IMG/VR virus record: IMGVR_UViG_2609459850_000001
Reading direction: 5' to 3' (one strand)
Origin: a virus
Lineage: Duplodnaviria > Heunggongvirae > Uroviricota > Caudoviricetes
DNA length: 19,489 nucleotides
Shown here: piece by piece, positions 1,429 through 19,489 of the stretch
Numbering within the stretch: the first letter of the stretch is position 1
Layout of the letters: each line of letters begins with the position of its first letter
Translations under genes and position numbers: made by a program
Notes under the pieces: model-generated
The model's database searches: none
Seen by the model: the letters and a program-made list of their open reading frames with translations, nothing else
Told to the model about the DNA's origin: nothing

Positions 1429-1923
1429 ATGGATCGAGAGTTAAAAAATCTGACGCTGAATATCAGTCAATTGGCGGCACTGTCAGGTGTACATCGCCAG
1501 ACTGCTGCGGCAAGGCTGCAAAATCTACCCGTTGCAGGGGGGCATGAAAGCAACCTCAAGCTTTATCGGGTGGTTGATATTGTGTCGGCATTTCTGGCAT
1601 TACCACCGCCGGTTGCAGAAGGCGAAATGGACGCACATGAGCGCAAAGCCTGGTATCAGTCTGAACGTGAGCGTCTTAAGTTCGAACAGGAAACGGCACA
1701 ACTCATTCCGGCCAGTGATGTCAGACGGGAGTTTGCCATCTGGGCAAAAGCGGTCGTGCAGGTGCTGGAGACATTACCGGATATTCTTGAACGTGACTGC
1801 GGTCTGCAGCCTGCCGCTGTGAGCCGTGTTCAGTCCATTATTGATGATCTGCGCGATCAGATAGCCCTGCGGGTGACTGAAGCAGGTGCGGATGATGAGG
1901 AGGAATTACAGCAGGAGGAGTAA
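1429..1923 (+). CDS. terminase small subunit (Nu1/NohA family)
   Basis: 164-aa ORF with GGAG upstream; its stop overlaps the terL start (TAATG). N-terminal HTH-like segment followed by a G..G..LY motif, resembling lambda Nu1 architecture and E. coli NohA-type proteins. Position immediately 5' of terL. Confidence 0.8.
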   Translation: MDRELKNLTLNISQLAALSGVHRQTAAARLQNLPVAGGHESNLKLYRVVDIVSAFLALPPPVAEGEMDAHERKAWYQSERERLKFEQETAQLIPASDVRREFAIWAKAVVQVLETLPDILERDCGLQPAAVSRVQSIIDDLRDQIALRVTEAGADDEEELQQEE

Positions 1924-4025
1924 TGCTGAATCAGGAAACCGCAAAGGCAGCACGAACCGATTCAGGTTATATCCTTCGCGCACCGAGACGAATGCGGGTT
2001 GCTGATGCCGTTGCTCAGTATATGCGGGTGCCCATGGGGGCAGGGAACTCAGTCCCGTGGGATCCGCTGGTGGCACCGTATGTTATTGAGCCTATGAACT
2101 GCCTGGCCTCGCGTGAATACGACGCAGTGATATTTGTTGGCCCGGCACGAACCGGCAAGACTATCGGCCTGATTGACGGCTGGGTGATTTACAACGTGAT
2201 TTGCGATCCTGCTGATATGCTGATCATTCAGATGACGGAGGAAAAAGCCCGCGAACACTCCAAAAAACGACTCGCCAGAACGTTTCGCGTCAGCCCGGAA
2301 GTGGTCAGTCGCCTGAGTCCGAACAAAAATGACAACAACGTTTATGACAGAACATTCCTTGCTGGCAACTACCTGAAAATCGGCTGGCCGTCAGTCAATA
2401 TCATGTCTTCATCAGATTATAAATGCGTGGCGCTGACGGATTATGACCGTTTTCCGGAAGATATTGATGGTGAGGGGGATGCCTTCTCTCTTGCCTCAAA
2501 ACGTACCACCACATTTATGTCCAGTGGTATGACGCTGGTGGAGAGTTCCCCCGGCAGGGATGTGAAGGATGTGAAATGGCGACGGACTTCACCGCATGAG
2601 GCTCCACCAACCACGGGGATCCTGTCGCTCTATAACCGTGGCGATCGCCGTCGCTGGTACTGGCCCTGTCCACACTGTGGTGAGTATTTTCAGCCCTGCG
2701 GCGATGTGGTTGCTGGTTTCCGTGATATTGCCGATCCTGTGCTGGCAAGTGAGGCGGCTTATATTCAGTGTCCTTCCTGTTCAGGACGGATTTTGCCTGA
2801 ACAAAAACGCGAGCTGAACGGACGTGGGGTCTGGTTACGGGATGGTGAATCCATCAATGCAGATGGCAGTCGTTATGGTGATCCCCGGCGTTCACGTATT
2901 GCGTCATTCTGGATGGAGGGTCCGGCAGCTGCTTATCAGACACTCTCGCAACTCGTTTACAAACTGCTTACTGCAGAACAGGAATACGAGACAACCGGAA
3001 GTGAAGAGACACTCAAGACGGTTATCAATACCGACTGGGGATTACCTTATCTTCCCCGCGCCAGCATGGAGCAACGAAAAAGTGAATTGCTTGAGCAGCG
3101 GGCAGAGCCAGTTCCTTCCCGCAGTGTGCCGGATGGCGTTAATTTCCTTGTGGCGACAGTGGATGTGCAGGCGGGACGTCATCGCCGTTTTGTGGTTCAG
3201 GTAACGGGCTATGGCAGCCGTGGCGAACGCTGGATTATTGATCGTTACAACATCACGCAGTCATTGCGCGGTGACAGCGACGGGGAGAGCCAGCGAATTG
3301 ATCCGGCCAGCTATCCGGAAGACTGGGATGTCCTGCTGACGGATGTTTTTCATAAAAGCTGGCCGCTGGCCTCCGACCCTTCTCAACAAATGCGACTGAT
3401 GGCAATGGCGGTGGACTCCGGCGGTGAAGACGGGGTCACTGATAATGCCTATAAATTCTGGCGTCGTTGCCGTCGTGATGGCCTTGGTAAACGTATTTAC
3501 CTGTTTAAGGGCGACAGCATCCGGCGAGCAAAACTGATCACCCGTACATTCCCTGATAACACCGGACGAACGGGCCGACGGGCGCAGGCCGCAGGTGATG
3601 TGCCGCTCTGGCTTCTTCAGACGGATGCCCTGAAAGACCGGGTGAATAACGCGTTATGGCGTGACTCGCCAGGTCCCGGCTATGTGCATTTCCCTGACTG
3701 GCTGGGGAGCTGGTTTTACGACGAACTGACGTATGAAGAGCGGAGCAGTGACGGGAAATGGAGTAAGCCGGGTCGCGGTGCCAACGAAGCTTTTGACCTG
3801 ATGGTGTATGCCGAGGCTCTGGTCATTCTGCATGGATACGAAAAGATCCGCTGGCCGGATGCACCGGAGTGGGCGAGCCGGGAAACCTGGCTGGAGTGTG
3901 TCCCGGACAGTACCGAACCGTCACCCTCACCGGAACCGGTACCCACGCCTGTTAAAAAACAAAAACGGAAGAAAACATTAACTGACGATGTTAACCCCTG
4001 GCTGACTTCCGGAGGATGGTTATGA
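1923..4025 (+). CDS. terminase large subunit (gpA family)
   Basis: 700-aa ORF with a Walker A-like GPARTGKT near the N-terminus and a CPHCG...CPSC zinc-ribbon-like segment, as in lambda gpA. Position between terS and portal. Confidence 0.9.
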   Translation: MLNQETAKAARTDSGYILRAPRRMRVADAVAQYMRVPMGAGNSVPWDPLVAPYVIEPMNCLASREYDAVIFVGPARTGKTIGLIDGWVIYNVICDPADMLIIQMTEEKAREHSKKRLARTFRVSPEVVSRLSPNKNDNNVYDRTFLAGNYLKIGWPSVNIMSSSDYKCVALTDYDRFPEDIDGEGDAFSLASKRTTTFMSSGMTLVESSPGRDVKDVKWRRTSPHEAPPTTGILSLYNRGDRRRWYWPCPHCGEYFQPCGDVVAGFRDIADPVLASEAAYIQCPSCSGRILPEQKRELNGRGVWLRDGESINADGSRYGDPRRSRIASFWMEGPAAAYQTLSQLVYKLLTAEQEYETTGSEETLKTVINTDWGLPYLPRASMEQRKSELLEQRAEPVPSRSVPDGVNFLVATVDVQAGRHRRFVVQVTGYGSRGERWIIDRYNITQSLRGDSDGESQRIDPASYPEDWDVLLTDVFHKSWPLASDPSQQMRLMAMAVDSGGEDGVTDNAYKFWRRCRRDGLGKRIYLFKGDSIRRAKLITRTFPDNTGRTGRRAQAAGDVPLWLLQTDALKDRVNNALWRDSPGPGYVHFPDWLGSWFYDELTYEERSSDGKWSKPGRGANEAFDLMVYAEALVILHGYEKIRWPDAPEWASRETWLECVPDSTEPSPSPEPVPTPVKKQKRKKTLTDDVNPWLTSGGWL

Positions 4026-4234
4026 ATCAGAATGATATTGAAGCCATGATTCAGCGTTATACGGAAGCTGAAATGGCGGTGCTGGACGGAAAATCCGTCA
4101 CTTTTAATGGTCAGCAGATGACCATGGAAAACTTATCTGAGATCCGGCAGGGGCGGCAGGAGTGGGAGCGCCGCCTTGCGGCTCTGATTACACGACGACG
4201 GGGGCATCCCGGGTACCGGCTGGCGAGGTTCTGA
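4022..4234 (+). CDS. head-tail connector / head completion protein (gpW-like)
   Basis: About 70 aa. The ATG at 4022 overlaps the terL stop (ATGA) and has GGAGG 6 nt upstream; the ATG at 4016 is too close to the RBS. The C-terminal RRRG motif recalls lambda gpW, and the position (terL-W-portal) matches lambda. Confidence 0.6.
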   Translation: MNQNDIEAMIQRYTEAEMAVLDGKSVTFNGQQMTMENLSEIRQGRQEWERRLAALITRRRGHPGYRLARF

Positions 4235-5742
4235 TGGCAATTCTTGATGATGTGATTGGCGTTTTTTCACCAGGATGGAAAGCGGCAAGGCTGCGTTCCC
4301 GTGCGGTGATCCAGGCTTATGAGGCCGTAAAAACGACGCGGACACACAAAGCCCGACGGGAGAACCGAACTGCCGACCAGTTAAGCCAGTACGGGGCCGT
4401 GTCGTTACGTGAGCAGGCTCGTTACCTTGATAACAACCACGATCTGGTCATTGGTGTATTTGACAAGCTGGAAGAACGGGTGGTGGGGAAAAACGGGATT
4501 ATTGTCGAGCCACATCCGGTATTACGCAATGGGGCCATTGCCCGTGATCTGGCAGCGGAGATACGTACCCGATGGAGTGAATGGTCTGTCAGTCCGGAGG
4601 TCACCGGGCAGTTTACCCGTCCGATGCTGGAACGTCTGATGCTGCGTACCTGGCTGCGCGATGGTGAGGTGTTTGCCCAGATGGTTTCCGGGCGCATAAA
4701 CAGCCTGACGCCTTCTGCCGGTGTTCATTTCTGGCTGGAGGCGCTCGAGCCGGACTTTATTCCCATGACCAGTGATGAGAGCAACAGGCTGAATCAGGGC
4801 GTGTTTGTTGATGACTGGGGGCGTCCCGAAAAATATCTGGTGTATAAAAGCCGTCCCGTATCCGGGCGGCAGATGGAAACCAAAGAAGTGGATGCAGAGC
4901 GAATGCTGCATCTTAAATTTGTTCGCCGTCTGCACCAGATGCGCGGGACGTCTTTGTTGTCCGGTGTGCTGATCCGCCTCAGTGCTCTGAAAGAGTATGA
5001 AGATTCTGAGCTGACTGCAGCAAGGATCGCCGCTGCTCTGGGGATGTACATCCGGAAAGGCGACGGACAGAGCTATGAAACGGATGGTAATGACAGCAAG
5101 GAGAATGAACGCGAGCTTACCATTCAGCCAGGCATTATTTACGACGATCTGAAACCCGGCGAAGAAATCGGAATGGTGAAGTCGGATCGCCCCAATCCTA
5201 ACCTTGAAACTTTTCGTAATGGTCAGTTGCGTGCCGTGGCTGCGGGCAGTCGTCTGAGTTTTTCCAGTACAGCGCGCAACTATAACGGCACTTACAGCGC
5301 CCAGCGTCAGGAGCTGGTTGAATCTACTGATGGCTACCTGATCCTGCAGGACTGGTTTATTGGTGCCGTCACCCGCCCGATGTACCGTGCCTGGCTGAAA
5401 CAGGCTGTGGTATCCGGTGTTATCAGGCTACCCCGCGATCTGGACCGATCTTCACTGTATACCGCGGTGTATTCCGGACCGGTGATGCCGTGGATTGACC
5501 CTGTTAAGGAGGCTGAGGCCTGGAAAATTCAGATTCGTGGTGGAGCGGCGACAGAATCAGACTGGGTACGTGCAGGTGGTCGTAATCCTGATGATGTCAA
5601 ACGTCGGCGCAAGGCCGAAATTGATGAAAACCGCAAGCTGGATCTGGTATTTGATACCGATCCGGCCAGTGATAAAGGAGGCAGCAGTGCCGCAACGAAA
5701 CGACAGGAGCCGCAGCACACCGACGACCAGTCCGAAGAATAA
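4234..5742 (+). CDS. portal protein (gpB-like)
   Basis: 502 aa from the ATG at 4234, which overlaps the W stop (TGATG). The track's 4162 start is a GTG inside W. Size and position are typical for a lambdoid portal. Confidence 0.85.
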   Translation: MAILDDVIGVFSPGWKAARLRSRAVIQAYEAVKTTRTHKARRENRTADQLSQYGAVSLREQARYLDNNHDLVIGVFDKLEERVVGKNGIIVEPHPVLRNGAIARDLAAEIRTRWSEWSVSPEVTGQFTRPMLERLMLRTWLRDGEVFAQMVSGRINSLTPSAGVHFWLEALEPDFIPMTSDESNRLNQGVFVDDWGRPEKYLVYKSRPVSGRQMETKEVDAERMLHLKFVRRLHQMRGTSLLSGVLIRLSALKEYEDSELTAARIAAALGMYIRKGDGQSYETDGNDSKENERELTIQPGIIYDDLKPGEEIGMVKSDRPNPNLETFRNGQLRAVAAGSRLSFSSTARNYNGTYSAQRQELVESTDGYLILQDWFIGAVTRPMYRAWLKQAVVSGVIRLPRDLDRSSLYTAVYSGPVMPWIDPVKEAEAWKIQIRGGAATESDWVRAGGRNPDDVKRRRKAEIDENRKLDLVFDTDPASDKGGSSAATKRQEPQHTDDQSEE

Positions 5743-5755
5743 TTCCTGGTTCAGG

Positions 5756-7714
5756 ATGCAGGCAGGTCACCAGAGTGACGCGGATATTTATATTTATGAC
5801 GAGATTGGTTTCTGGGGTGTTACGGCGAAGCAGTTTATCAGTGATCTGAATGCACTGGGCGATATCACCCACATTAATCTCCATATTAATTCACCGGGTG
5901 GCGATGTCTTTGAAGGCATCGCCATTTTTAATGCACTGAAAACACATGGTGCGTCCATTACCGTTTATGTCGACGGTGTGGCGGCGTCAATGGCGTCGGT
6001 CATTGCGATGGTGGGAAACCCGGTCATTATGCCGGAAAACTCCTTCATGATGATTCATAAACCATTTGGCTTTACGGGCGGTGATGCGGAGGACATGCGC
6101 ACCTATGCCGACCTGCTCGATAAAGTTGAGGCGGTTCTGTTACCCGCTTATGCACAGAAAACCGGGAAAACCACCGATGAAATTGCTGCCATGCTGGCGG
6201 ATGAGACCTGGATGTCCGGTGCCGAATGTCTGGCACAGGGATTTGCTGATCAGGTGACACCAGCCGTTAAGGCAATGGCATGTATTCAGTCAAAACGTAC
6301 AGAGGAATTTAAAAAGATGCCGGAATCCATTCGAAATATGATTACTCCGCCACGCAACAGTGCTCCACGCGTACAGGATGATGGACCTGCAGCCTCCCGG
6401 ACGCCAGTGCAGGCAGCAGCACCCGTGGTGGATGAAAACAGCATCCGTGCGCAGGTCCTGGCAGAGCAAAAAGCGCGTGTAAACGGTATTAATGCTCTGT
6501 TTGCCATGTTTGGCGGGCGTTATCAGTCGTTGCAGGCTCAGTGTCTTGCCGATCCTGAATGTTCGCTGGAGCAGGCCCGCGAAAAGCTGTTGAACGAGAT
6601 GGGGCGCGAGTCCACGCCATCCAATAAAAATACCCCGGCTCATATTTATGCCGGTAACGGTAATTTTGTGGGGGACGGGATCCGCCAGGCGCTGATGGCG
6701 CGCGCCGGGTTTGAAAAAACTGAACGTGATAATGTCTACAACGGGATGACCCTGCGTGAATATGCCCGTATGTCACTGACTGAACGTGGTATTGGTGTTT
6801 CCAGTTATAACCCGATGCAGATGGTCGGTGCGGCGTTCACACACAGTACGTCTGACTTCGGTAATATTCTGCTGGATGTTGCGAACAAAGCCATTCTGCA
6901 GGGCTGGGAAGATGCCCCTGAAACCTATGAACAGTGGACGCGGAAAGGTCAGTTGTCTGATTTTAAAATTGCCCATCGTGTGGGTATGGGGGGCTTCAGT
7001 GCTCTGCGTCAGGTGCGTGAAGGGGCAGAATATAAATACGTCACCACCGGAGATAAACAGGCCACTATTGCACTGGCGACCTATGGCGAGCTGTTCAGTA
7101 TCACCCGTCAGGCCATTATCAATGATGATCTGAATATGCTGACCGATGTCCCGATGAAGCTGGGCCGTGCGGCGAAATCCACTATTGCCGATCTGGTTTA
7201 TGCCATTCTGACGTCTAACCCGAAAATCTCCACAGATAATGTAAGTCTGTTCGATAAAGCGAAACATGCAAACGTACTGGAGAGCGCGGCAATGGACGTG
7301 GCATCGCTGGATAAAGCCCGCCAGTTGATGCGCGTTCAGAAAGAGGGTGAGCGTCATCTGAATATTCGTCCTGCGTTCGTACTGGTACCGACGGCGATGG
7401 AGTCTGTTGCTAACCAGGTCATTCGCTCCTCAAGTGTCAAGGGGGCTGACATTAACGCCGGTATTATTAACCCGGTGAAAGATTTTGCGACCGTTATTGC
7501 AGAGCCTCGTCTTGATGATAACAGCCAGACCACCTTCTACCTGGCTGCGTCCAAAGGCTCCGATACGATTGAAGTGGCTTATCTCAACGGTGTGGATACG
7601 CCATATATTGATCAGATGGAGGGCTTCAGTGTGGATGGCGTGACAACGAAAGTGCGTATTGACGCTGGTGTTGCGCCAGTTGATCACCGCGGCCTGGTGA
7701 AATGTACGGCGTAA
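5756..7714 (+). CDS. fused prohead protease (ClpP/S49-like) - scaffold - major capsid protein (tripartite capsid gene)
   Basis: N-terminal segment IYIYDEIGFWG...INSPGGDVFEGIAIFNALK...VDGVAASMASVIAM...MMIHKPF is protease-like. The middle is Ala/Gln/Glu-rich, and the C-terminal roughly 250 aa is capsid-like. The start is taken as the first ATG after the portal stop; the track's 5495 is a TTG inside portal. The start is uncertain (weak RBS). Confidence 0.75.
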   Translation: MQAGHQSDADIYIYDEIGFWGVTAKQFISDLNALGDITHINLHINSPGGDVFEGIAIFNALKTHGASITVYVDGVAASMASVIAMVGNPVIMPENSFMMIHKPFGFTGGDAEDMRTYADLLDKVEAVLLPAYAQKTGKTTDEIAAMLADETWMSGAECLAQGFADQVTPAVKAMACIQSKRTEEFKKMPESIRNMITPPRNSAPRVQDDGPAASRTPVQAAAPVVDENSIRAQVLAEQKARVNGINALFAMFGGRYQSLQAQCLADPECSLEQAREKLLNEMGRESTPSNKNTPAHIYAGNGNFVGDGIRQALMARAGFEKTERDNVYNGMTLREYARMSLTERGIGVSSYNPMQMVGAAFTHSTSDFGNILLDVANKAILQGWEDAPETYEQWTRKGQLSDFKIAHRVGMGGFSALRQVREGAEYKYVTTGDKQATIALATYGELFSITRQAIINDDLNMLTDVPMKLGRAAKSTIADLVYAILTSNPKISTDNVSLFDKAKHANVLESAAMDVASLDKARQLMRVQKEGERHLNIRPAFVLVPTAMESVANQVIRSSSVKGADINAGIINPVKDFATVIAEPRLDDNSQTTFYLAASKGSDTIEVAYLNGVDTPYIDQMEGFSVDGVTTKVRIDAGVAPVDHRGLVKCTA

Positions 7715-7737
7715 ACGTCGCAGACAACAACTCTGAT

Positions 7738-7757
7738 GGCCCGTAAGGGCTTTTTTT
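7738..7757 (+). terminator. intrinsic terminator-like hairpin after the capsid gene (GGCCC-GTAA-GGGC + T7)
   Basis: GC stem with a GNRA-type GTAA loop followed by seven T residues, 24 nt after the capsid stop. A second 7-bp hairpin (CAGCCCC-TGAAC-GGGGCTG, 7769-7787) follows without a T-run. Confidence 0.45.
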
Positions 7758-7800
7758 GTACCTGAAATCAGCCCCTGAACGGGGCTGTGCGGAGACAGTT

Positions 7801-8124
7801 ATGGCAAAGAATTTTGTAGAAGAAGGAAAAACGGTGGCGATTGTTGCCAGTGCAGCCATCAGCAGCGGAGATCTGGTGCAGGTGGGTGATGTTTTTGCGG
7901 TGGCGCTGACCGATATTCCACAGGGAGAAACAGGCGACGGCATAACCGAAGGTGTGTTTATGCTGCCTAAGCTGAAAACGGATGACATGAAAACGGGTAA
8001 GAAGGTTTATCTGAAGTCAGGAAAAGTTCAGCTGACTAACAGCGGCTCTGATCCGCTGGTCGGGGTTGTATGGGCAGATGCCGGAACCAGTGCAGAAGAA
8101 GTGCCGGTAAAACTCAATGTCTGA
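7801..8124 (+). CDS. small head protein, putative decoration/cement protein (DUF2190-like)
   Basis: 107 aa from the ATG at 7801 with GGAGA 5 nt upstream; the track's 7756 is a TTG inside the terminator hairpin. Sits directly after the capsid gene, where lambda has D. The family assignment is from memory and weak. Confidence 0.45.
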   Translation: MAKNFVEEGKTVAIVASAAISSGDLVQVGDVFAVALTDIPQGETGDGITEGVFMLPKLKTDDMKTGKKVYLKSGKVQLTNSGSDPLVGVVWADAGTSAEEVPVKLNV

Positions 8125-8392
8125 TCCCTTTTCCCGGCTGGCAGCGCGTATGGATGCGATCACGGTCAGAAAGATGGGAAAGACAGCCTCGATTAATGAT
8201 GTCGATATGACTGTGATCCCGGGAGAAACACTGGCAGAGCTGAATGCTCTGTCCGGACCTGCGGTCTCTCTGGTGGTGTTTTCTTCGGGATACCGCCCAC
8301 GGCGCGGGGATCGCGTTGTTTATGACGGACAACAATGGACGGTCACACGGCATGAACGTTTTAACGGTAAGCCAATGATCTTTATTGAGTAA
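8117..8392 (+). CDS. head-tail joining / head completion protein (FII-like position)
   Basis: 91-aa ORF whose start overlaps the previous stop (ATGTCTGA). Position between the head proteins and Z. Confidence 0.5.
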   Translation: MSDPFSRLAARMDAITVRKMGKTASINDVDMTVIPGETLAELNALSGPAVSLVVFSSGYRPRRGDRVVYDGQQWTVTRHERFNGKPMIFIE

Positions 8393-14294: not shown

Positions 14295-14993
14295 ATGCAG
14301 GATATTCCACAGGAAACACATCATGAGACGACACGCCTCACTCAGTCAGCCCAGGTGGTGCTCTGGGAAATCGATCTGACAGAGGTCGGTGGTGAACGTT
14401 ATTTTTTCTGTAATGAGCAGAACGAAAAAGGTGAGCCGGTTATCTGGCAGGGGCGGCAGTATCAGGTATACCCCATTCAGGGGACGGGATTTGAACTGAA
14501 CGGCAAGGGCAGTGCTGCCCGTCCGACACTGACGGTTTCTAACCTGCACGGCATGGTCACCGGGATGGCGGAAGACCTGCAGAGTCTGGTCGGAGGAATG
14601 GTGGTCCGGCGTAAGGTTTACGCCCGTTTTCTGGATGCGGTGAACTTCGTCAACGGAAACAGTGACGCCGATCCGGAGCAGGAGGTGATCAGCCGCTGGC
14701 GCATCGAGCAGTGCAGCGAACTGAGCGCGGTGAGTGCCTCTTTTGTACTGTCCACGCCGACGGAAACGGACGGTGCCGTTTTTCCGGGACGTATCATGCT
14801 GGCCAACACCTGCACCTGGACCTATCGCGGTGATGAGTGCGGTTATCACGGTCCGGCGGTCGCGGATGAATATGATCAGCCGACGTCCGATATCACGAAG
14901 GATAAATGCAGCAAATGCCTGAGCGGCTGTAAGTTTCGCAATAACGTCGGCAACTTTGGCGGCTTCCTTTCCATTAACAAACTTTCGCAGTGA
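14295..14993 (+). CDS. L: minor tail protein L
   Basis: 232 aa, the same length as lambda gpL, and near-identical over long stretches (SVVLWEIDLTEVGGERYFFCNEQNEKGEP, CTWTYRGDECGY, KCSKCLSGCKFRNNVGNFGGF). AGGAGG RBS. Confidence 0.95.
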   Translation: MQDIPQETHHETTRLTQSAQVVLWEIDLTEVGGERYFFCNEQNEKGEPVIWQGRQYQVYPIQGTGFELNGKGSAARPTLTVSNLHGMVTGMAEDLQSLVGGMVVRRKVYARFLDAVNFVNGNSDADPEQEVISRWRIEQCSELSAVSASFVLSTPTETDGAVFPGRIMLANTCTWTYRGDECGYHGPAVADEYDQPTSDITKDKCSKCLSGCKFRNNVGNFGGFLSINKLSQ

Positions 14994-14998
14994 ATCCC

Positions 14999-15742
14999 AT
15001 GACAGAGACAGAATCAGCGATTCTGGCGCACGCCCGGCGATGTGCGCCAGCGGAGTCGTGCGGCTTCGTGGTGAGAACACCGGAGGGGGAAAGATATTTT
15101 CCCTGCGTGAATATCTCCGGTGAGCCGGAGGAGTATTTCCGGATGTCGCCGGAGGACTGGCTGCGGGCAGAGATGCAGGGTGAGATTGTGGCGCTGGTCC
15201 ACAGCCACCCCGGTGGTCTGCCCTGGCTGAGTGAGACCGACCGGCGGCTGCAGGTGCAGAGTGATTTGCCGTGGTGGCTGGTTTGCCGGGGGGCGATTCA
15301 CAAGTTCCGCTGTGTGCCACATCTTTCCGGGCGGCGCTTTGAGCACGGGGTGACGGACTGTTACACGCTGTTCCGGGATGCTTACCATCTGGCGGGGATT
15401 GAGATGCCGGATTTTCATCGCGAGGATGACTGGTGGCGTAACGGTCAGAATCTCTATCTGGATAATCTGGAGGCCACAGGGCTGTATCAGGTGCCGTTGT
15501 CAGCGGCGCAGCCGGGCGATGTGCTGCTGTGCTGTTTTGGTTCATCGGTGCCGAATCATGCCGCCATTTACTGTGGTGACGGCGAGCTGCTGCACCATAT
15601 TCCTGAACAACTGAGCAAACGAGAGAGGTATACCGACAAATGGCAGCGACGCACACACTCCCTCTGGCGTCACCGGGCATGGCACGCATCTGCCTTTACG
15701 GGGATTTACAACGATTTGGCCGCCGCATCGACCTTCGAGTGA
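14999..15742 (+). CDS. K: tail assembly protein K (JAMM/MPN metalloprotease-like + NlpC/P60-like domains)
   Basis: The JAMM signature H-S-H-x7-S-x2-D (HSHPGGLPWLSETD) is present in the sequence, and a Cys (VTDCYTLF) / His pair sits in the C-terminal half. Start set at the first ATG (14999); a GTG at 14990 overlaps the L stop. The 3' end overlaps I by 103 nt in another frame. Confidence 0.85.
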   Translation: MTETESAILAHARRCAPAESCGFVVRTPEGERYFPCVNISGEPEEYFRMSPEDWLRAEMQGEIVALVHSHPGGLPWLSETDRRLQVQSDLPWWLVCRGAIHKFRCVPHLSGRRFEHGVTDCYTLFRDAYHLAGIEMPDFHREDDWWRNGQNLYLDNLEATGLYQVPLSAAQPGDVLLCCFGSSVPNHAAIYCGDGELLHHIPEQLSKRERYTDKWQRRTHSLWRHRAWHASAFTGIYNDLAAASTFE

Positions 15743-16287: not shown

Positions 16288-16347
16288 TGAAAAACGTTTT
16301 ATGTGAAACCACCTCCGGGCGGTTTTGTCGTTTATGGAGCGTTAGGA

Positions 16348-19300
16348 ATGGGTAAAGGCAGCAGTAAGGGGCATACCCCGCGCGAAGCGAAGGACAACCT
16401 GAAATCATCCCAGATACTGAGCGTGATAGACGCCATCAGTGAAGGGCCGGTTGAAGGTCCGGTGGACGGATTAAAAAGTGTGCTGCTGAACAGTACGCCA
16501 GTGCTGGACAGTGAGGGGAATACCAATATCTCCGGTGTCACGGTGGTGTTCCGGGCAGGTGAGCAGGAGCAGTCACCGCCGGAGGGATTTGAATCCTCCG
16601 GCTCCGAGACGGTGCTGGGTACGGAAGTGAAATACGACACGCCGATCACCCGCGCCATCACGTCGGCAAACATCGACCGACTGCGCTTTACCTTCGGTGT
16701 GCAGGCACTGGTGGAAACCACCTCAAAGGGGGACCGGAATCCGTCGGAAGTTCGCCTGCTGGTTCAGATACAGCGTAATGGTGGCTGGGTGACGGAAAAA
16801 GACATTACCATTAAGGGCAAAACCACCTCGCAGTATCTGGCCTCGGTGGTGGTGGATAACCTGCCGCCGCGCCCGTTTAATATCCGGATGCGCAGAATGA
16901 CGCCGGACAGCACCACAGACCAGCTGCAGAACAAAACGCTCTGGTCGTCATACACCGAAATCATCGATGTGAAACAGTGCTACCCGAACACGGCACTGGT
17001 CGGCGTGCAGGTGGATTCGGAGCAGTTCGGCAGCCAGCAGGTGAGCCGTAATTATCATCTGCGCGGGCGTATTCTGCAGGTGCCGTCGAATTATAACCCG
17101 CAGACGCGGCAATACAGCGGTATCTGGGACGGAACGTTTAAACCGGCATACAGCAACAACATGGCCTGGTGTCTGTGGGATATGCTGACCCATCCGCGCT
17201 ACGGCATGGGGAAACGTCTTGGTGCGGCGGATGTGGATAAATGGGCGCTGTATGTCATCGGCCAGAATTGCGACCAGTCGGTGCCGGATGGCTTTGGCGG
17301 CACGGAGCCGCGTATTACCTGTAATGCGTACCTGACCACGCAGCGCAAGGCGTGGGATGTGCTCAGTGATTTCTGCTCGGCGATGCGCTGTATGCCGGTA
17401 TGGAACGGGCAGACGCTGACGTTTGTGCAGGACCGGCCATCGGATAAGGTGTGGACCTATAACCGCAGTAATGTGGTGATGCCGGATGATGGCGCGCCGT
17501 TCCGCTACAGCTTCAGCGCCCTGAAAGACCGCCATAATGCCGTTGAGGTGAACTGGATTGACCCGAACAACGGCTGGGAGACGGCGACAGAGCTTGTGGA
17601 GGATACGCAGGCCATTGCCCGTTACGGTCGTAACGTCACGAAGATGGATGCTTTTGGCTGTACCAGCCGGGGGCAGGCACACCGCGCCGGGCTGTGGCTG
17701 ATTAAAACAGAACTGCTGGAAACGCAGACCGTGGACTTCAGCGTGGGCGCAGAAGGGCTTCGCCATGTGCCGGGCGATGTCATTGAAATCTGTGATGATG
17801 ACTATGCCGGTATCAGCACCGGCGGGCGCGTGCTGGCGGTAAACAGCCAGACCCGGACGCTGACGCTCGACCGTGAAATCACGCTGCCATCCTCCGGCAC
17901 CACGCTGATAAGCCTGGTTGACGGTGAGGGTAATCCGGTCAGCGTGGAGGTCCAGTCCGTCACCGACGGCGTGAAGGTGAAAGTGAGCCGTGTTCCTGAC
18001 GGCGTTGCTGAATACAGCGTGTGGGGGCTGAAGTTGCCGACGTTGCGCCAGCGCCTGTTCCGCTGCGTGAGTATCCGTGAGAACGACGACGGCACGTATG
18101 CCATCACTGCCGTGCAGCATGTACCGGAGAAAGAGGCCATCGTGGATAACGGGGCGCACTTTGACGGCGACCAGAGCGGCACGGTGAATGGTGTCACTCC
18201 GCCAGCAGTGCAACACCTGACCGCAGAAGTCACCGCAGACAGCGGGGAATACCAGGTGCTGGCGCGCTGGGATACGCCGAAGGTGGTGAAGGGCGTGAGC
18301 TTCCTGCTTCGCCTGACCGTGGCAGCGGATGACGGCAGTGAGCGGCTGGTCAGCACGGCCCGGACGACGGAAACCACATACCGCTTCACGCAACTGGCGC
18401 TGGGGCGTTACATGCTGACGGTCCGGGCGGTAAATGCGTGGGGGCTGCAGGGCGATCCGGCATCGGTATCGTTCCGGATTGCCGCACCGGCAGCGCCGTC
18501 TCGGATTGAGCTGACACCGGGCTATTTTCAGATAACCGCCACGTCACATCTTGCGGTTTATGACCCGACGGTACAGTTTGAGTTCTGGTTCTCGGAAAAA
18601 CGGATTACCGATATCAGGCAGGTTGAAACCACAGCCCGCTATCTTGGCACGGCGCTGTACTGGATAGCTGCCAGTATCAATATCAGGCCGGGCCATGATT
18701 ATTATTTTTACGTTCGCAGTGTGAACACCGTTGGCAAATCGGCATTCGTGGAGGCTGTTGGTCGGGCGAGCGATGATGCGGAAGGTTACCTGGATTTTTT
18801 CAAAGGCCAGATAACCGAATTCCATCTCGGCAAGGAGCTGCTGGAAAAAGTCGAGCTGACGGAGGATAACGCCAGCAAACTGGAGGAGTTTTCGAAAGAG
18901 TGGAAGGACGCCAGTGATAAGTGGAATGCCATGTGGGGCGTCAAAATTGAGCAGACCAAAGACGGCAAACATTATGTCGCGGGTATTGGCCTCAGCATGG
19001 AGGACACGGAGGAAGGCAAACTGAGCCAGTTCCTGGTTGCCGCTAACCGTATCGCGTTTATTGATCCGTCTAATGGCAACACAAGACCAATGTTTGTTGG
19101 TCAGGGCGATCAGATATTCATGAACGACGTGTTCCTGAAACGCCTGACGGCTCCGACCATTACCAGCGGCGGTAATCCTCCGGCATTTTCCCTGACACCG
19201 GATGGGCGGCTGACGGCGAAAAATGCCGATATCAGCGGTAACGTGAATGCGAACTCCGGGACGCTCAACAACGTCACGATTAACGAGAACTGTCGGGTTC

Positions 19301-19489
19301 TGGGAAAACTGTCCGCGAACCAGATTGAAGGCGATCTCGTTAAAACAGTGGGCAAAGCTTTCCCCCAGGACTCCCGTGCACCGGAACGGTGGCCATCAGG
19401 GACCATTACCGTCAGGGTTTATGACGATCAGCCGTTTGACCGGCAGATTGTTATTCCGGCGGTGGCATTCAGCGGCGCTAAACATGAGA
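16348..19489 (+). CDS. J: tail tip / central tail fibre protein J, 5' partial (about 1047 codons; continues beyond window end)
   Basis: ATG at 16348 with GGAG 8 nt upstream. The N-terminus [20 protein letters not shown]... and long internal stretches match lambda gpJ. There is no stop before the window end, so it is missing from the ORF track. Confidence 0.95.

Follow-up and report, generated by a model that had tools for sequence, protein, structure and literature searches.

The stretch of DNA analysed here (the window) is 19,489 nucleotides from a virus of the Caudoviricetes (IMG/VR record IMGVR_UViG_2609459850_000001), with head and tail genes in the lambda-type order. Next to the portal gene lies one long open reading frame (ORF) that encodes a protease, a scaffold-like middle segment and the major capsid protein in a single chain. 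The ORF of 652 amino acids plus stop codon that an earlier note on this DNA had reported at 5756..7714 (plus strand) exists. Its frame stays open from 5486, no stop codon interrupting it up to 7711 (the longest ORF in the list runs 5495..7714), and the probable full coding sequence begins upstream of 5756 (Table 1); residue numbers below refer to this 675-amino-acid form unless the 652-amino-acid ORF is named. By computation the ORF is divided into three modules, with catalytic residues, protein folds, homology with phage Gifsy-2 and a gene order as described below. It very probably represents, in an mEp460-like lambdoid E. coli phage, the tripartite head gene of the Gifsy-2 type, which would follow the assembly course proposed below.

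The N-terminal module is a ClpP-like serine protease domain. Pfam CLP_protease matches amino acids 23-168 of the 652-amino-acid ORF (E = 4.4e-36), and the curated model 'head maturation protease, ClpP-related' is passed with 217 bits (cutoff 120). The equivalog model of the cellular ATP-dependent ClpP, TIGR00493, gives 59.9 bits against a cutoff of 308.6. The earlier note had called this segment ClpP/S49-like. The ClpP part of this is confirmed; the S49 part is not, since no Pfam match to Peptidase_S49 is found in the fusion protein at E<=0.1 and TIGR00706 (SppA_dom) reaches 21.7 bits against a cutoff of 155. Judged by these profiles, the protease is of the ClpP/S14 family, neither S49 nor cellular ClpP. 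Conservation was examined in 113 diverse representatives of 50%-identity clusters. All of them (113/113) keep Ser101 and His124, and the third position of the triad is acidic in 108 of the 113 (Glu in 99, Asp in 9). It might be supposed that the domain has lost its catalytic activity and merely adds scaffold mass to the interior, the cutting being done by a host protease or another phage protease; the Glu in place of the canonical ClpP Asp and the score far under the cutoff for cellular ClpP are in line with this. The invariant Ser and His, the conserved acidic position, the score with the head maturation model and the finding of no further protease gene in the head module make it very improbable.

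The structure was modelled with AlphaFold2 on an alignment of 80 homologues (42-95% identity), with a mean predicted local distance difference test score (pLDDT) of 79.6. The model has three ordered modules parted by disordered segments. Past the protease domain and two short helices comes a disordered linker (P 22%, A 22%), whose length and sequence are hypervariable among relatives. It is followed by a scaffold-like segment with helices at residues 250-273, 280-288 and 294-308 (pLDDT 82-91), in which R264, F272, C286, L301 and L302 are invariant in the 80 sequences. The middle had been described earlier as low-complexity and Ala/Gln-rich. Low complexity is found only for about 27 residues, which are Pro/Ala-rich and not Ala/Gln-rich, and the next 60 residues are conserved and, by confident prediction, helical. 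Residues 250-308 match no Pfam family. Because no known scaffold family matches, the label 'scaffold' rests on position, helicity and conservation. The invariant C286 lies within a Cys-x4-Cys motif in this clade (Cys286 and Cys291; 6542-6559). The second disordered segment comes just past a conserved Leu-Leu-x-x-x-Gly-x-x-x-x-Pro motif and is variable among relatives, with the exception of the near-invariant Pro311. This segment, residues 310-326, is most likely the zone of the maturation cleavage that would free the capsid protein.

The C-terminal module is matched by Pfam Phage_capsid_4 over amino acids 352-649 of the 652-amino-acid ORF (E = 5.3e-55), with Mu-like_gpT as a secondary match. 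In the model it is a large alpha/beta domain, for which the HK97 fold is predicted; it includes a long spine helix at 483-510 and, at 429-461, a hairpin whose tip is floppy. A search of the PDB with the single sequence of the capsid part gave weak matches only (3e-4), to Mu GpT-domain capsids. No second capsid-like gene is found in the portal-to-tail interval of the window. The capsid-like C-terminus of the earlier note is thus upheld, and the checks proposed there, a profile search of the N- and C-terminal parts and a structure prediction of the C-terminal part, returned CLP_protease, Phage_capsid_4 and the HK97 fold; the lack of such a fold had been named there as grounds for rejection.

Table 1. 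Features of the fusion gene and of the neighbouring head genes (positions in the window)
Feature	Position	Strand	Details
Probable full coding sequence of the fusion protein	5687..7714	+	675 amino acids, 73.4 kDa; stop codon 7712-7714
Shine-Dalgarno sequence AAGGAGG	5675..5681	+	5 nt before GTG 5687, inside the portal 3' end
ClpP-like (S14) serine protease domain	5747..6262	+	residues 21-192; model pLDDT about 90
Catalytic Ser101	5987-5989		
Catalytic His124	6056-6058		
Catalytic Glu173	6203-6205		at the ClpP Asp position
Two short helices			residues 203-219; model
Candidate internal ribosome-binding site and in-frame start	6302..6319	+	GAGGA 6302-6306; ATG 6317-6319 (Met211)
Pro/Ala-rich linker, predicted disordered	6347..6427	+	residues 221-247 (27 residues); pLDDT <50
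Three-helix scaffold-like (delta-domain-like) segment	6434..6610	+	residues 250-308
Second segment predicted disordered	6614..6664	+	residues 310-326; pLDDT <50 at 310-324
HK97-fold major capsid region	6665..7711	+	residues 327-675, about 38 kDa
Small terminase gene	1429-1923		head module
Large terminase gene	1923-4025		head module
Small head-tail adaptor gene	between large terminase and portal		
Portal protein gene, lambda family	4234..5742	+	Pfam Phage_portal_2 E = 5e-82; mEp460 annotation
Intrinsic-terminator-like hairpin, GGCCCGTAAGGGC then T7	7738..7757	+	between capsid and decoration genes
Head decoration (cement) protein gene	7801..8124	+	107 amino acids; Pfam Phage_cement_2 2.8e-20; phrog_122 'head decoration' 5.5e-47
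Head-tail joining protein gene	8117-8392		91 amino acids; Pfam family 'Gifsy-2' match, Phage_attach weakly
Lambda Z, U and V homologues, then tape measure	downstream of 8117-8392		

The fusion protein belongs to a large and curated family. It is matched over its full length by PHROG 133 (1185 bits). With NCBIfam NF045540 (ClpP-like prohead protease/major capsid protein fusion, Gifsy-2 type) it scores 984.3 bits against a cutoff of 475, and residues 32-674 align to positions 2-651 of the 652 of the profile. The uninterrupted ORF, the ClpP-fold Ser-His domain, the C-terminal HK97 fold and the head-module gene order of this type are all present. An exhaustive search made without a profile gave more than 7000 clusters at 50% identity (E <1e-30). 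Among the best 150 of these, 112 have 620-720 amino acids, and most align near-full-length at 35-60% identity. Since the arrangement is this widespread and is curated under NF045540, it is already known. In small actinobacteriophages and siphoviruses, too, fusions of protease, scaffold and capsid are known to be common (PMC7302621). The fused gene as stated in the earlier note therefore adds nothing new to the existing NCBI family model.

A fusion can also arise as an artefact, when a sequencing error or frameshift joins separate protease and capsid genes. The two are separate in some relatives (e.g., phage Epona), and chimaeric portal-protease-capsid calls of 1080-1135 amino acids exist in the databases. 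Here the chance of such an artefact is close to nil. Of 5426 complete E. coli genomes, 1988 (more than a third) carry the arrangement in a stretch covering at least 80% of the fusion gene, and the identical uninterrupted ORF recurs in these 1988 genomes as well as in independently sequenced phages. The single-ORF architecture is kept in more than 100 representatives at 35-60% identity, and there is the NCBI-curated model. That this is one gene, not split by a frameshift or sequencing error, also holds in thousands of independent assemblies in which the ORF is intact.

The closest known genes are those of lambdoid E. coli phages. In nucleotide comparisons, positions 5500-7800 of the window are 99.9% identical to Escherichia phage mEp460_ev081 and 98-99% identical to mEp460, cdtI, Ayreon, phi458 and further lambdoid E. 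coli phages, and 100% identical copies of the gene (5687-7714) exist in E. coli S88, APEC O1 and further strains. In the mEp460/cdtI/Ayreon group and E. coli prophages, with 99-100% nucleotide identity, it is effectively the same gene, and the records of the group vary only in the annotated start and the name (652 amino acids from ATG in GenBank, 675 from GTG in RefSeq). Across records the product is named 'protease/scaffold', 'major head protein' or 'Nu3'. The practical value of the present analysis is in annotation, where names are inconsistent (protease, Nu3, scaffold, major head protein) and many starts are placed at the wrong codon. To the known arrangement it adds a correction of the start codon, a sharper domain map and a testable hypothesis of a nested start.

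The translation start had been held not to be determinable from sequence. Comparison narrows it to GTG 5687, 69 bases earlier than the start given before, and this codon is very likely the correct one. The AAGGAGG in front of it pairs with the 16S 3' end at a duplex energy of -11.6 kcal/mol. The AAAGGAGG element and the GTG are kept in the Stx2 phage, LLS and many IMG/VR relatives, and more distant relatives have a comparable start site, likewise within the 3' end of the portal gene. A Trp-Phe/Tyr motif at 5747-5752 (Trp at 5747-5749) is conserved, including in Pseudomonas and Citrobacter relatives, where the equivalent of the Met of ATG 5756 is Ile. As the motif lies between the portal stop codon and ATG 5756, its conservation is not attributable to the overlap with the portal gene. 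RefSeq starts a 100% identical copy at exactly GTG 5687 (WP_001136588.1, 675 amino acids), and 675 is the length of the most populous protein clusters, with thousands of members in total. A gene beginning at ATG 5756, with 652 residues, is annotated in GenBank (JQ182728 of mEp460, cdtI and related records), and ATG is the commoner start codon. Yet ATG 5756 has no properly spaced Shine-Dalgarno sequence but only an AGG abutting it, the Met24 that it encodes is not conserved, most relatives having Ile or Leu there, and the Trp motif lies upstream of it. It is improbable as the start. GTG 5687 is favoured because of the conserved Shine-Dalgarno sequence and GTG, the unconserved Met24, the upstream Trp motif and the RefSeq start.

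The Gifsy-2 gene of Salmonella (STM1034.3n) is 70% identical over 669 residues and has the three modules in the same order. The flanks are also alike, with the portal gene upstream and with the genes of a 107-amino-acid decoration protein (62% identical) and of head-tail joining downstream. The Gifsy-2 protein differs in length (696 amino acids vs 675 here), in the length and sequence of the linker, in the unrelated N-terminal extension before the Trp motif, and in the host (Salmonella vs E. coli). Effantin et al. 2010 (Virology 402:355) reportedly described the tripartite arrangement for Gifsy-2. The comparison made in the earlier note with this arrangement is sound, given the identity, the same gene order and the NF045540 score. 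According to papers citing the Gifsy-2 study, the protease and coat genes of Gifsy-2 are fused (PMC12315714), its capsid is T=7 (PMC8814770), and a trimeric protein is found at each three-fold axis (PMC8538268). By analogy, the protein of the window would process itself to the mature capsid protein and form a decorated T=7 capsid.

Other systems share parts of this layout. In lambda, as here, a serine protease of the ClpP/crotonase fold is encoded beside the portal gene, the scaffold is in the frame of the protease, and the head is decorated. The lambda protease gpC is, however, of the S49 (SppA) type, whereas the protease here is of the S14 (ClpP) type, and E is a separate gene in lambda, whereas the capsid protein is part of the same ORF here. 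The decoration protein here belongs to Phage_cement_2, and no match to the lambda gpD family is reported for the 107-amino-acid protein. Lambda C, Nu3, D and E had been taken as separate in the earlier note; this is true of E and not of Nu3, which is nested in-frame within C. A lambda-like in-frame internal start may also occur here. In HK97 (gp4/gp5), an N-terminal scaffold-like delta domain on the HK97-fold capsid protein is removed by a phage protease after assembly. Residues 250-308 occupy the position of this delta domain and have no detectable sequence similarity to it. HK97 differs in that its protease is encoded separately and belongs to another family, and its shell has covalent cross-links instead of a decoration protein. 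The same protease-scaffold-capsid logic in a single ORF is found in the 'major capsid and protease fusion' genes of actinobacteriophages (clusters EE, AN, AX, CW and others) and in NF045541. NF045541 matches only residues 220-672 of the fusion protein (scaffold and capsid; 400 bits, below the cutoff of 525), its protease part fails to match, and the Arthrobacter phage genes are about 23% identical.

The assembly course proposed for the fusion protein is as follows. Initiation at GTG 5687, which lies within the last part of the portal gene, would give a 675-residue polyprotein composed of the ClpP-fold protease (Ser101/His124/Glu173), the Pro/Ala linker, the three-helix domain, the second flexible segment and the HK97-fold capsid. 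The capsid domains would assemble on the portal to form a procapsid, the scaffold and protease parts pointing to its interior. The crowded proteases may then cut the flexible segments, removing roughly residues 1 to 310-326 and leaving a capsid protein of about 38-40 kDa. While DNA is packaged the shell would expand, and it would be cemented by the 107-residue decoration protein. The order of assembly, the self-cleavage and its positions, and the part played by the decoration protein are modelled on the biology of Gifsy-2, HK97 and lambda. Several points weigh against the interpretation as a Gifsy-2-type tripartite head gene with such a course. The third catalytic residue is Glu and that of cellular ClpP is Asp; the middle segment is matched by no known scaffold family; and ATG 5756 is the start annotated for mEp460 and cdtI in GenBank. 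Also, the proteolysis, the cleavage sites and the mature N-terminus would be as in the model systems by analogy, and the experimental details of Gifsy-2 come second-hand, via citing papers.

The fusion gene may contain a second gene nested within it. Between the protease and the scaffold-like segment there is a candidate ribosome-binding site followed by an in-frame ATG, and the putative product from ATG 6317 is a scaffold-capsid protein of 465 amino acids (50.6 kDa) that ends at 7714. If this ATG were used in addition to GTG 5687, the cell would make a protease-free scaffold-capsid protein, and the ratio of the two starts would set the dose of protease. The full-length chain, itself a capsid subunit, would bring the protease into the procapsid. 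This is a plausible possibility, though in our judgement its chances are a little short of even.

Internal starts were surveyed in 45 non-redundant fused genes, in a zone of 45 codons between protease and scaffold. A site was counted when ATG or GTG had a Shine-Dalgarno match of dG <= -5.4. All 45 genes have a qualifying site in the zone, whereas the rate in the remainder of these genes would predict about 18%. Across all the fused genes examined, internal sites were noted at 6302-6319 in the window and in the loci L002-L005, L043-L166, L007 (23116-23133), L169 and L172-L175. In 37 of the 45 the zone site ranks first or second of about 23 internal ATGs. Note that this zone was chosen after the pattern had been noticed, and the counts overstate independence because the sequences are phylogenetically related.

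The sites are of two classes, which never coincide in one gene. In class one (28/45; the window, Gifsy-2-like and Pseudomonas LESphi2-like genes) the start is Met211, with nAGGAn 10 nt upstream. The codon preceding GAN is NAG in 28/28 of these genes, in which NAG makes up 49% of the Glu/Lys/Gln codons, whereas the synonymous sites beside it vary. In class two (17/45) there is no Met211, and an ATG of the linker (GTG in one gene) is preceded at 5-9 nt by AAGGAG, AGGAG or GAGG. Because one gene uses GTG, the class-two position keeps the potential of a start codon and not the identity of an amino acid. Two mutually exclusive solutions to the same site, and a fixed NAG codon among variable synonymous neighbours, count in favour of the nested start. 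Met211 was also considered as an internal start shared by the whole family and was rejected, as in the 113 representatives this position is occupied mainly by Ala, Val, Thr, Ile or Pro. The idea of an internal start survived because sequences without Met211 carry a Shine-Dalgarno sequence and an ATG a few codons downstream.

A similar pattern is seen farther away. Met is present at 211 or in the linker in 108 of the 113 cluster representatives, and codons for Lys, Glu or Gly often precede it by 3-5 residues. In the distant fusions of Paracoccus Psul1, Stenotrophomonas S1, Rhodobacter RcKai and Shewanella 1/44, residues 205-223 hold one of the top three internal Shine-Dalgarno and ATG combinations, which ranks third in RcKai and first in the other three. 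Gifsy-2 has GAGGAG-N9-ATG at the corresponding place. Faecalibacterium phage FP_Epona (L173 1119-3255) has a separate gene for a 176-amino-acid prohead protease, then a GGAGG site and a gene for a 530-amino-acid scaffold-capsid protein. The latter aligns to residues 207-672 and begins near the protease/scaffold boundary. The 176-amino-acid protease has no detectable similarity to the ClpP-like domain of the fusion. Since the Epona protease is dissimilar and separate, the scaffold-capsid module combines with a different protease there. Nested in-frame genes of protease and scaffold are also established elsewhere: they occur in lambda, where Nu3 is stated to be nested in C, and in herpes simplex virus 1 (HSV-1), and ribosome profiling shows one in the archaeal virus HFTV1 (bioRxiv 10.64898/2026.09.13.751334).

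On the other side, the site in the window is weak. GAGGA gives -6.0 kcal/mol at a spacing of 10 nt, compared with -11.6 at 5687. The support for the nested pair is comparative only, and an ancestral gene boundary may have left these signals behind as relics. An apparent 'split' gene in Vibrio astriarenae is a frameshift and provides no evidence. Two stand-alone proteins of 443-445 amino acids (P0166 and P0385) were likewise discarded as evidence, one because it comes from a prophage copy with a frameshift, the other because a contig end truncates it. No statement of a nested start in capsid-containing fusion genes was found in the searchable literature, a scope that leaves the primary Gifsy-2 paper outside. 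The nested pair would extend the scheme of lambda C/Nu3, herpesvirus UL26/UL26.5 and HFTV1 gp17/gp17.5 to genes that also bear the capsid protein, an extension for which the odds are nearly, but not quite, balanced. If true, the internal start would explain how a phage with a protease-fused capsid protein avoids about 415 proteases per head, and it would be a third layout for coupling protease, scaffold and shell.

The neighbouring genes complete the head module (Table 1). The fusion gene shares its first 56 nt, in a different frame, with the end of the portal gene, an overlap which would permit translational coupling. A promoter scan of 5400-8200 found no promoter-like site, and therefore a separate transcript of the capsid part is not indicated. 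The hairpin downstream of the fusion gene is annotated as a rho-independent terminator in the mEp460 record; it sits within what is expected to be a single late operon.

The minus-strand ORFs at 14346-15689 and 16332-19406 (up to 481 amino acids) have no family matches and are read as antisense ORFs over tail genes. Those at 16332-19406 are taken to overlie a lambda-J-like tail-fibre gene that runs off the end of the window and for this reason does not appear in the ORF list.

The product of 7801-8124 is, according to its family matches, a head decoration (cement) protein and would pair with the capsid protein once the head is mature. Elsewhere this gene is labelled 'hypothetical', 'membrane protein' or 'DUF2190'. 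The gene at 8117-8392 is called 'DNA breaking-rejoining protein' in RefSeq and in the Stx2 phage record, and Pfam describes the family 'Gifsy-2' as a sugar transporter. These names look misleading because the position of the gene is that of a head-tail joining protein.

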